Virus record (IMG/VR): IMGVR_UViG_2537562231_000009
Location: 1-30,914 of that record
Source: a virus
Lineage: Duplodnaviria; Heunggongvirae; Uroviricota; Caudoviricetes
DNA: 30,914 bases
Reading direction: 5' to 3' (one strand)
Every line of letters begins with the position of its first letter. The first letter of the stretch is position 1. The notes under the pieces are model-generated. The model was not told the origin of the DNA, did not search any database, and saw only the letters and a program-made list of their open reading frames with translations. The position numbers were made by a program, and so were the translations under genes. Positions 13,065-15,410 of the stretch are shown piece after piece.

Positions 13065-15410
13065 GTGTGCGAGTGCTCAAAAAACGTTGATTTTCATAAA
13101 AGGATGATTTTATGCTGCCAGACCAGCGACCAGCGACCAGCGACCAGCGACCAGCGACCAGCGACCAGCGACCAGCGACCAGCGACCAGCGACCAGCGAC
13201 CAGCGACCAGCGACCAGCGACCAGCGACCAGCGACCAGCGACCAGCGACCAGCGACCAGCGACCAGCGACCAGCGACCAGCGACCAGCGACCAGCGACCA
13301 GCGACCAGCGACCAGCGACCAGCGACCAGCGACCAGCGACCAGCGACCAGCGACCAGCAGTAAATCAAGAAAGTCTGTAAAATCTGTTGAGCCGGAAATT
13401 ACCGAACTGGCGAACTCATGGCTTAAATCTTACAGGCTTGATTACAAGTTGCAGAATGCATCACTTAACGGAGAGATCGATAACGCACTGGACGCTTATT
13501 TTTCGAAAAATGGCGGCGCAGGCGGTAATCGTCCCGACGTAAAACTCCTTGTTAAGGACAAATACGGCAAGCAGTATCCCGTTCTCATCGAGTATAAAGG
13601 CTACAAGGACAGGCTTATCAGACTTGGCAGCAACGGTATTATTGAGAACAAAGATGCCAGAAAAGAATGGAATTTTAAAAATATTAATGGATACGCGGTG
13701 AATGGCGCAGTCCATTATGCCAACGCACTTCTTCAGTTCACCAATTACCCTGATATTATTGCTATTGGTATGACCGGCTGGCGCGATGATGGTACAGGCG
13801 AACTGCATCATGAAATCGGCGTGTGGTACGTATCAAAGAATAATTTAGGAGCCGGACAGAAGGTTGGTGAATTCACCGACTTATCGTTCCTTGCTGATAA
13901 AAATGTTGATGGATTTCTCAACAAGATAAAGCTGCTTAATCTTCCTCCCGAAGAACTGGAAAAAATCAAGGCCAGCAAAGAGGAAGAGATAGACACGCGA
14001 CTTTCCCGTCTGAATAACGATATTTACCAGAATGAAAAGGGGCTTGGTGAAAGTGATCGTGTTTACCTTGTTGTGGCTACCGTTATTGCAACGTTGGGGA
14101 TTCCGGGAAAGTTAGCACCGCTGGATAAAAAAGAACTGACCTCTTCAACGGAGGAGGACTTGCGTGATGGTGATATTATTTTCAGGAAAATAAGGAATTT
14201 TTTAAGGCTGAAAGCTGTTCCTGAAACAAAAAGAGAAATGATTTTGCGCTCGTTGCAAAATACGCTGTGGACTGAAAACATTAACAAACCAGTCAACGGT
14301 GAAAGCCAGTTAAAGCGCGTGTTTGTTAAAGTTGTTGATGATCTTGGGGAGTATTACAAAATTGGACTGACCACCGATTTTACGGGCAAACTGTTTAATG
14401 AGATGTATCGCTGGCTTGGATTTACGCAGGACAAGCTCAATGACGTCGTTCTGACACCACCTTATGTTGCCACATTGCTGGCACGACTCGCCAGAGTAAA
14501 CAAAGATTCCTATGTGTGGGATTTTGCTACAGGTTCTGCGGGATTGCTTGTGGCTGCAATGAATGAAATGCTCATTGACGCCAGAGAAAATATTCACTCA
14601 CCGAACGAACTACAACTTAAGGAAGCGCAAATCAAGGCTGAACAGCTTCTTGGCCTTGAGGTGTTATCCAGTATTTATATGCTGGCCATCCTGAATATGA
14701 TTTTGATGGGGGATGGTAGCTCGAATATCCTCAATAAAGACTCGCTGGCCGATTTTGACGGCAAGTATGGATTTGGGAAAACAGGAGAAAAATTCCCTGC
14801 GGACGCATTTATTCTCAATCCTCCGTATTCAGCTAAAGGTAACGGCATGATTTTCGTGCAGAAGGCGCTGTCGATGATGGATAAAGGCTATGCTGCAGTG
14901 ATTATCCAGAGTTCAGCTGGCACAGGAAAGGCTACGGAGTACAACAAAAAAATACTCAAGGAAAATACCTTGCTGGCAAGCATCAAAATGCCTGCGGATC
15001 TGTTTATTGGTAAATCAAGCGTTCAGACGTACATTTACGTTTTTCAGGTAAAAATTCCGCATAACGCGAAACAGGCTGTTAAGTTTATCGACTTTTCCAA
15101 TGACGGCTACGCTCGCTCTAATCGCAAAAAGGCAAGAAACAATCTTGTTGATGCCGATCGTGCAAAAGAGCGTTATCAGGAGGTTGTGGATCTGGTTCAC
15201 TTCGGGAAAGGTTGCCTTAATATCTTTACGGAGGATGAATATTTTGAGGGAACAATCGATCCTGATAGTGGTGAGGACTGGAATCAGACCAGGCCAGTAG
15301 ATGCTAGGCCAACGCTGGAGGATTTCAAAAAGACGGTAGGTGATTACCTTGCATGGGAGGTCTCGCAATTACTGAAAAAACAAGGTGAAAACAATTTTGC
15401 GGGAAAGTAA
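13065..15410 (+). CDS. Restriction-modification enzyme: candidate N-terminal PD-(D/E)xK nuclease domain fused to a gamma-class N6-adenine methyltransferase (Type IIB/IIG-like); start codon ambiguous (GTG 13065, ATG 13104, ATG 13112)
   Basis: Methyltransferase motif I DFATGSAGLL and motif IV NPPY; upstream RPDVKLLVKDKYGKQYPVLIEYK fits a PD...ExK nuclease motif; heptamer repeat near the 5' end; low-GC gene. Confidence 0.7.
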   Translation: MCECSKNVDFHKRMILCCQTSDQRPATSDQRPATSDQRPATSDQRPATSDQRPATSDQRPATSDQRPATSDQRPATSDQRPATSDQRPATSDQRPATSSKSRKSVKSVEPEITELANSWLKSYRLDYKLQNASLNGEIDNALDAYFSKNGGAGGNRPDVKLLVKDKYGKQYPVLIEYKGYKDRLIRLGSNGIIENKDARKEWNFKNINGYAVNGAVHYANALLQFTNYPDIIAIGMTGWRDDGTGELHHEIGVWYVSKNNLGAGQKVGEFTDLSFLADKNVDGFLNKIKLLNLPPEELEKIKASKEEEIDTRLSRLNNDIYQNEKGLGESDRVYLVVATVIATLGIPGKLAPLDKKELTSSTEEDLRDGDIIFRKIRNFLRLKAVPETKREMILRSLQNTLWTENINKPVNGESQLKRVFVKVVDDLGEYYKIGLTTDFTGKLFNEMYRWLGFTQDKLNDVVLTPPYVATLLARLARVNKDSYVWDFATGSAGLLVAAMNEMLIDARENIHSPNELQLKEAQIKAEQLLGLEVLSSIYMLAILNMILMGDGSSNILNKDSLADFDGKYGFGKTGEKFPADAFILNPPYSAKGNGMIFVQKALSMMDKGYAAVIIQSSAGTGKATEYNKKILKENTLLASIKMPADLFIGKSSVQTYIYVFQVKIPHNAKQAVKFIDFSNDGYARSNRKKARNNLVDADRAKERYQEVVDLVHFGKGCLNIFTEDEYFEGTIDPDSGEDWNQTRPVDARPTLEDFKKTVGDYLAWEVSQLLKKQGENNFAGK
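13121..13358 (+). repeat. Simple sequence repeat: 34 perfect tandem copies of GACCAGC
   Basis: Read directly from the sequence; lies inside the 5' end of ORF 13065..15410, where it encodes (TSDQRPA)n. Confidence 0.9.

Follow-up and report, generated by a model that had tools for sequence, protein, structure and literature searches.

The stretch of DNA analysed here, called the window throughout, comprises 30,914 nucleotides of a Caudoviricetes virus (IMG/VR record IMGVR_UViG_2537562231_000009) and encodes on its forward strand a predicted restriction-modification (R-M) enzyme whose gene begins with a long heptanucleotide repeat that probably serves as a phase-variation switch. Thirty-four perfect GACCAGC units, a presumably hypermutable tract, occupy positions 13121..13358 (238 bp), as the first-pass annotation had recorded and as both direct reading and Tandem Repeats Finder (period 7, 34.0 copies, 100% matches, 0 indels, score 476) bear out. 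A perfect 7-mer array of this size cannot have arisen by chance, and elsewhere in the 30.9-kb window Tandem Repeats Finder returned arrays of 2-4 imperfect copies only. The tract lies inside an open reading frame (ORF) at 13065..15410 (GTG start, 781 aa). It is preceded by a short leader (13079..13120), directly followed by the 683-aa enzyme body (13359..15410) and, further downstream, by a gene for a specificity (S) subunit (15470..16564), all on the forward strand.

PADLOC, Pfam and motifs shared with homologues identify the enzyme body as a Type IIG/IIB-like restriction-methylase fusion. It matches the PADLOC profile REase_MTase_IIG over positions 15-717 of 721 (E=3.4e-232) and Pfam N6_Mtase (5e-21), with a weak match to VRR_NUC. 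An N-terminal PD...EYK nuclease region is found at about 13449-13619, and RPD...EYK is invariant among homologues from Neisseria, Providencia and Methylophilaceae. The gamma-class N6-adenine methylase occupies about 14430-14837, with NPPY at 14817-14828 and a DFATGSAG motif. The S gene contains two target-recognition regions, detected as Pfam Methylase_S in two stretches (1.3e-19) and as PADLOC Specificity_II (9e-21), and it is ~99.9% identical between alleles. The PADLOC assignments REase_MTase_IIG and Specificity_II together with the two-stretch Methylase_S match point to a BcgI-like Type IIB architecture; these profiles predict an enzyme of Type IIG/IIB (BcgI-like) in which nuclease and methylase are fused and which is served by an S subunit. 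In BcgI, subunit A likewise combines nuclease and methylase while a separate subunit B recognises DNA (PMC3592470, PMC3592466). BcgI differs in not being phase-variable, and two-sided cleavage is a putative trait of the window enzyme. The label 'HsdM family' given by the Prokaryotic Genome Annotation Pipeline (PGAP) was considered and rejected, as the Type I HsdM model TIGR00497 scored 36 bits where the cut-off demands 242.75. In the related genomes checked, the annotation shows neither HsdR nor ResIII next to the enzyme gene, and a PDB sequence search gave no significant relative of the enzyme.

Further observations concern the S gene. Its first canonical start is TTG15470, with AGGA at 15458-15461, and an S-subunit-like EWGEFRIGD is encoded in frame upstream of it (15443..15472), where there is no ATG, GTG or TTG. 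In several genomes the S gene is listed by PGAP as a pseudogene or fragment, and the copy in one related locus (L001) carries a 1-nt indel. A 24-bp repeat (2.2 copies, 15887..15938) in the centre of the gene encodes IEELEAAH/IEELEAYL. It was considered as a second length switch and rejected, since nine related loci uniformly have 2 copies of it.

Reading frames, translation start and repeat-number variation

The tract is free of stops in all six frames, and each of its three forward frames encodes the heptad DQRPATS, the tract peptide being (DQRPATS)n. Which upstream start is joined to the enzyme body depends on the number of units, n. When n is a multiple of three, ATG13112, which lies 9 nt before the tract, is in frame with the body; when n mod 3 = 1, as in the window, only ATG13104 and GTG13065 are in frame; and when n mod 3 = 2, every upstream start is out of frame. 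At n=34, ATG13104, which shares the frame of ORF 13065..15410, gives a 768-aa product, while ATG13112 opens an 83-aa ORF closed by the TAA at 13361..13363. The third frame closes at 13378, and the two wrong frames meet stops 0 and 6 codons beyond the tract. All start and stop coordinates of the first-pass annotation proved correct, including its statement that the start with the best Shine-Dalgarno (SD) sequence, ATG13112, is out of frame at this copy number. On the reverse strand, the ORF list contains a spurious ORF over the tract (13012..13368), whose reverse complement reads LVAGRWS and is stop-free; PGAP reports it as 'YXWGXW repeat-containing protein' or 'hypothetical protein' in most related genomes. 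A protein search with (DQRPATS)9 as query matched only 7 fragments, for which composition filtering is probably responsible.

Among the candidate starts, ATG13112 has the strongest predicted anti-SD pairing (-5.4 kcal/mol, against -3.0 for GTG13065, -2.8 for ATG13104 and -2.5 for TTG13449, the weakest). Its SD, AAGGA at 13100-13104, is separated from it by a 7-nt spacer, and both ATG13112 and AAGGA are unchanged in every allele. ATG13104 is replaced by ATA in two alleles (L020 and L042), and GTG13065 is absent from the alleles of the Okinawa bovine isolates (OkiPb) and from L028. PGAP places the start of this one gene at four positions (products of 653, 569, 608 and 739 aa), mostly at the equivalent of TTG13449 (WP_001178557.1, 653 aa), and the 569-aa version cuts off the predicted nuclease region. 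Repeat-free homologues from Neisseria, Providencia and Methylophilaceae (677-689 aa, 72% identity) begin with M..ASKKSNKSIEPNIADLANGWLKSY, which aligns with SKSRKSVKSVEPEITELANSWLKSY directly after the tract. In the 90 bp that follow the tract, 10 of 16 inter-allele differences fall at third codon positions, and no ATG, GTG or TTG is present between the tract end and 13449. Because the repeat-free homologues begin at the tract junction and the segment behind it behaves as coding sequence without containing a start codon, translation must, by this comparison, begin upstream of the tract. The downstream starts chosen by PGAP are artefacts, and ATG13112 is most likely the start used.

The gene is present in 30 of 5,426 complete E. 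coli genomes. Twenty-eight loci from related E. coli were compared with the window (29 sequences in total), and six assemblies with interrupted tracts were excluded from the phase counts of perfect tracts. That these interruptions might be real stabilising changes was considered and rejected, since they consist of single-base deletions (gacagc) and a poly-C run, which are apparent long-read errors. The 23 perfect tracts have a median of 66 units and range from 16 to 120: 16, 19, 22, 23, 31, 50, 56, 58, 64, 64, 66, 76, 79, 80, 82, 83 (three times), 88, 89, 99 and 120 in the related loci and 34 in the window. Invariance among related genomes, which the first-pass annotation had named among the observations that would speak against a switch, was not seen. 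Flank identity was measured over 330 + 2,300 bp. Within lineage sets whose copy number differs by 1-55 units, 0 of 2630 flanking positions are mismatched. With identical flanks, G8, G6/7 and G1/2 carry 99, 83 and ~93 units, UCPROB-002 and UCPROB-001 83 and 76, three O111:H8 isolates 56, 83 and 58, the three OkiPb isolates 23, 22 and 19, 2013C-3250 and E2855 64 and 31, and the window and Z1323HEC0393 34 and 89. The tracts of 66 and 120 units are those of JNEC-KY173 and deer strain 48, respectively. In short-read phage and metagenome contigs, the tract is collapsed or the contig ends inside it. A Salmonella contig ends precisely at the tract end, and Escherichia phage PhiR12_3 (PV340552.1 21392..24133, host ECOR13) carries the R-M gene with ~83 units, annotated as hypothetical proteins only.

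All three phases are represented. Over the 29 sequences, the body is in the frame of ATG13112 in 6, in that of ATG13104 in 12 and in neither in 11; among the 23 perfect tracts, n mod 3 equals 0 in 3, 1 in 11 and 2 in 9. The body ORF is intact in 29/29 sequences and is under purifying selection, with dN/dS at 0.21 for close alleles and at 0.05 in the comparison with L028, an allele at dS=1.44 that retains 64 perfect units. That a gene should stay intact and constrained while being out of phase in many genomes is expected of a reversible switch and not of gene decay.

A shared leader and repeat on three restriction-modification systems

The leader of the window gene, delimited by alignment and BLAST, consists of an A-run with GTTGATTTT (13086-13094), 17 further nucleotides that include the SD AAGGA and the weak ATG13104, and ATG13112 CTG CCA, so that the cassette reads ...CAAAAAACGTTGATTTTCATAAAAGGATGATTTTATGCTGCCA(GACCAGC)34. 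A tract of the same composition is known from E. coli strains that make Shiga toxin (STEC), where Atack 2018 described CAGCGAC[n], a rotation of GACCAGC, in the Type III mod gene of M.Eco131I, which modifies GCC(m6A)TC (PMC5909438). Length heterogeneity within populations was reported for it, and by that account no phase-variable methyltransferase had been known before in pathogenic E. coli; the study also warns of short-read collapse at such tracts (PMC5909438). Via its primer, this mod locus was located on eight plasmids of 90-117 kb. On pOkiPb01677_2 (L052), the sequence ahead of the mod gene reads ...GAAAAAGCTTGATTTTTATTGAGGGAAATTTTTATGCTGCCA(GACCAGC)35, in frame with the ATG, and the plasmid tracts vary from ~12 to 39 units. 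The window and this plasmid locus have in common ATG CTG CCA, the tract, the SD and an AAAAAGC/TTGATTTT block located exactly 17 nt before the ATG. By BLAST, their leaders are 83.6% identical over 55 nt (E=2e-6, 28 Gbp searched), and a further leader match reached E=8e-5.

A third instance was found in strain A34 (L053), where ...GTTGATTTTTTATGGAGAAAACACATATGCTGCCA(GACCAGC)99 stands directly after a Q gene and continues in frame into the coding sequence for an EcoRI-family adenine methylase (PF13651, 2e-143) whose gene overlaps that of a GmrSD_N/HNH Type II restriction enzyme by 1 nt. This EcoRI-family cargo was seen in 1 of 5,426 complete genomes. According to Pfam and PADLOC, the three cargo classes are a gamma-class fusion with S, a beta-class Type III Mod accompanied by Res, and an EcoRI-like Type II methylase paired with its restriction enzyme, and the three methylases are mutually unrelated by BLASTP (E>=0.18). 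The TTGATTTT-N17-ATGCTGCCA spacing is kept in all three contexts (window 13087..13111, L052 4554..4578, L053 5022..5046) while the 17 nt in between have diverged; TTGATTTT is not a consensus promoter by scan. The PGAP misannotation pattern described above is seen again at the mod gene of the plasmid and in A34.

It was considered whether the window simply carries the locus of Atack 2018, and this was rejected: its primers are absent at <=3 mismatches, the proteins are unrelated (BLASTP E=0.18) and the replicon is different. The M.Eco131I system resembles that of the window in its repeat, in its homologous 5' module and in length differences between strains. It differs in that its Mod is a beta-class N6_N4_Mtase/TypeIII_RM_meth protein working with Res, encoded on plasmids of 90-124 kb that are conjugative or mobilisable, whereas the window has a lambdoid prophage gene for a gamma-class fusion accompanied by an S subunit. 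The forward primer of Atack 2018 is absent from IMG/VR, and the shared cassette goes unmentioned in that paper (PMC5909438). Searches for the cassette junction returned 0 matches in 100,044 species-representative genomes and 8 in metagenomes, all with window-type cargo and collapsed tracts and none of them new; leader searches of PLSDB and INPHARED gave no new cargo. A second copy of the leader is present elsewhere on the chromosome in NZ_AP042554.1 (~1458324), NZ_AP042574.1 (~1481297), NZ_AP045167.1 (~1733990) and NZ_AP042687.1; strains OkiPb01692, OkiPb01696, OkiPb01714 and JNEC-KY171 are the carriers of such second copies. Three IMG/VR sequences (L029, L034, L040) contain 9-12 GACCAGC units followed by ACCAGC hexamers. 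Their upstream sequence differs from that of the cassette, and a long ORF is lacking downstream; they represent an unrelated phage locus, and the heptamer thus exists outside the cassette too.

Common descent of the cassette is nearly certain. A stronger proposal, to which we give an even chance, is that leader, ATG-CTG-CCA and (GACCAGC)n form a portable module which has been joined, on three or more occasions, to the leading gene of mutually unrelated R-M systems carried by prophages and plasmids of E. coli. Since it offers hundreds of bp of perfect identity, the tract may itself be the substrate on which homologous recombination acts to carry the switch from one gene to another. In all three systems the switch sits on the methylase-bearing first gene, be it an R-M fusion, mod before res, or a methylase gene overlapping the restriction gene by 1 nt. 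A frameshift should silence restriction with, or before, modification, so that restriction should not outlast modification. The presence of the cassette at the head of two further unrelated R-M systems argues that the module itself is kept by selection.

Prophage setting and precedents

The R-M pair lies in the late region of a lambdoid prophage, at the site for accessory genes ('morons'). Upstream lie a Q antiterminator gene (12073..12582, + strand; Pfam Phage_antitermQ, E=8.8e-48, with the same PGAP assignment in related loci L001-L004) and, between Q and the R-M gene, a hok/gef toxin gene (12782..12937, + strand; Pfam HOK_GEF, E=7e-22, also annotated by PGAP in related loci). A promoter scan of 12500-13500 returned a single site, the sigma-70-like TTGAAA-16-TAGAAT at 12579..12606 (+ strand, 10/12 matches) just after Q, a position that suggests a pR'-like role. 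No site was found by scanning the cassette leaders. Reading the leader as a TTGATT-N18-TATGCT promoter was rejected, as transcription would then begin within the tract without a start codon. Downstream of the R-M pair follow a tRNA cluster at 17020..17269 (Met-CAT, called Ile by PGAP, Arg and Arg), a SASA esterase gene and lysis genes. Such tRNA clusters are typical of the late regions of Stx phages. In strain 2013C-3033 (L025 6471..7290), the S gene is followed, ~500 bp downstream, by the start of the gene for the stx1c A subunit.

Between the S gene and the tRNAs, at about 16866..16979 by correspondence with the PGAP annotation of L001, the window contains a short remnant of a site-specific DNA methyltransferase gene whose N-terminus is missing, which suggests that the R-M cassette took the place of part of a methylase gene previously present in the phage. 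Other repeats in the window include four ~20-bp direct repeats at 6383..6460 (CATCCCCCAAAACGAGGGAA; also scored as 39 bp x2) inside ORF 6036..6974, which resemble the origin iterons within the O-type replication gene of lambdoid phages, a 27-bp x2 repeat at 25045..25098 near the terminase region, and a 162-bp repeat (1.8 copies, 87% identity) at 30622..30914 that runs off the window end.

The closest precedent in an E. coli prophage is NeuO of CUS-3, which carries an AAGACTC variable number of tandem repeats (VNTR) 2 nt after its start codon in 2-93 copies, is ON at multiples of three and has its activity tuned by the number of heptads (Deszo 2005 as cited in PMC3046976). The two systems are alike in their prophage location, in a heptanucleotide VNTR just past the start with a wide copy range (2-93 and 16-120 units, respectively) and in an N-terminal tail to which three units add one heptad. 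They differ in unit and heptad (AAGACTC/RLKTQDS) and in the capsule-modifying cargo of NeuO, whose expression and activity were determined experimentally, whereas those of the window gene are predicted from sequence. In light of NeuO and of the GACCAGC heptamer in the STEC Type III mod gene, the first-pass view that such a tract is unusual for an E. coli prophage gene was overstated. Cj0031 of Campylobacter jejuni is a chromosomal gene with a homopolymeric G tract and is not known to have a separate S subunit. It resembles the present gene as a single-polypeptide Type IIG R-M enzyme switched by a simple-sequence repeat (PMC4889913). The O111 Type IIG system of Forde 2019 was considered as a possible earlier report of this gene and rejected, since that enzyme is SenTFIV-like and unrelated, and an IS element has inactivated it. 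No published description of the present gene was found, a 2026 review included, in a search that REBASE and subscription journals lay outside. The mechanism class is already known; what is new is a homologous leader-ATG-CTG-CCA-tract cassette on three unrelated R-M systems.

A candidate contingency switch and its alternatives

We consider it likely that the tract is a slipped-strand on/off contingency switch of a prophage Type IIG/IIB-like R-M gene. Slipped-strand mispairing would gain or lose 7-nt units, with unequal recombination possibly also acting, given the large jumps, and each unit would shift the frame by +1. From ATG13112, copy numbers divisible by three would yield a full-length MLP-(DQRPATS)n-enzyme. 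At n mod 3 = 1, ribosomes starting there would halt at the TAA at 13361, leaving only the SD-poor ATG13104 or GTG13065 in frame, and the window is predicted to be OFF or weakly ON; at n mod 3 = 2, with all starts out of frame, the gene would be OFF. Expression would in this way toggle with tract length. The first-pass annotation had proposed a switchable methyltransferase. The notion of an R-M switch stands, and the enzyme has turned out to be a nuclease-methylase fusion with a separate S subunit; with both activities in one polypeptide, the switch would turn restriction and modification on or off together. The benefit may be bet-hedging of a costly or self-dangerous defence carried on a mobile element. 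The locus displays the hallmarks of contingency genes, namely a pure 7-nt coding tract, length variation with identical flanks, and early stops with an intact body. Length variation, mixed phases and an intact constrained body lend comparative support to the phase-switch reading.

Several points weigh against this reading. Expression, methylation and restriction in each phase state are predictions from sequence comparison, and the phase is unreliable in the six assemblies with interrupted tracts. The predicted ON state is the rarest among perfect tracts (3/23; chi-square p=0.10; one-sided binomial p=0.026, with related strains counted as independent), which may reflect a cost of being ON or the use of ATG13104 as a real start. 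A nuclease turned ON in an unmethylated cell should be dangerous. Finally, expression in a lysogen would call for a promoter, and the scan found none adjoining the R-M gene, only the pR'-like site after Q.

If ATG13104 is indeed used, the switch could have three levels, with high expression from ATG13112 at n mod 3 = 0, low expression from ATG13104 at n mod 3 = 1 and a fully OFF state at n mod 3 = 2 only, and the window would be weakly ON. A parallel is reportedly offered by the multi-ATG lic1 locus of Haemophilus influenzae (Weiser et al. 1989). The in-frame 768-aa product at n=34, the retention of ATG13104 in most alleles, including the diverged L028 and L050, the predominance of n mod 3 = 1 (11/23 perfect tracts) and database entries annotated from both starts (MLP... 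and MILCCQTS...) are in line with this arrangement. The only SD-like bases of ATG13104 (AAGG), however, abut the ATG with zero spacer, and its anti-SD pairing is weak; the codon is ATA in L020 and L042, and the other cargo systems lack a second-frame ATG (none nearby in L052, an extra ATG in the main frame in L053). We regard three levels as unlikely. Slightly less probable still is that the tract serves chiefly as a variable disordered tail, (DQRPATS)n of up to ~280 aa, that tunes activity or interactions, with on/off switching being secondary. Identity of the heptad in all frames, the NeuO precedent with its RLKTQDS heptad number and a median of 66 units, far beyond what a frameshift switch needs, all suit a tail. 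Against it, single-unit changes in two cases out of three throw the reading frame off and cut the protein short, which makes on/off switching unavoidable, the repeat-free homologues indicate that the tail is dispensable for the fold, and a role specific to one enzyme fits poorly with one tail on three unrelated enzymes. Such a tail would be compatible with the proposed on/off switch.

Two readings that deny a switch altogether fare worse. Were the tract an untranslated leader, with translation starting at TTG13449 or later, copy number would be frame-neutral and neither a protein starting MLP(DQRPATS)n nor one carrying the SKSRKSVKSVEPE peptide would be expected. PGAP's placement of the start at the TTG13449 equivalent in most genomes accords with this, and a random mix of phases is also expected of a non-coding tract. 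It is nevertheless very improbable, considering that the 30 residues dropped by PGAP are conserved in repeat-free homologues of other genera, that the 90-bp post-tract segment evolves as coding sequence, that TTG13449 has the weakest SD, that the PGAP start is inconsistent and that the tract is stop-free in every frame. That the tract is a hypermutable VNTR evolving neutrally, or an artefact of assembly, in a functionless gene could be suspected from the short-read contigs that collapse or break at the tract and from the six long-read assemblies with obvious errors in it. The spread of 16-120 units over complete long-read genomes far exceeds such error, the body is intact in all sequences and under purifying selection, a perfectly pure tract is retained even at dS=1.4, and the cassette recurs on three R-M systems, which together render this reading improbable in the extreme.

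The carrier prophages are found in STEC, enteropathogenic and commensal E. coli, and the R-M system can sit directly upstream of the Shiga toxin operon. A stochastic restriction barrier and methylation pattern could make individual cells of one clone differ in phage and plasmid uptake and in their epigenome. Standard annotation overlooks the switch through truncated starts, a bogus reverse-strand ORF and the HsdM label, and short-read assemblies collapse the tract, so that the phenomenon is under-counted. With 16-120 units, the tract is also an unrecognised hypervariable typing marker in outbreak-relevant lineages. The modular cassette is the part most likely to surprise the specialist: its presence on three R-M systems suggests that contingency switches can spread as modules, which, if true, would give mobile elements a general way to hold dangerous defence genes in a stochastic, reversible state.

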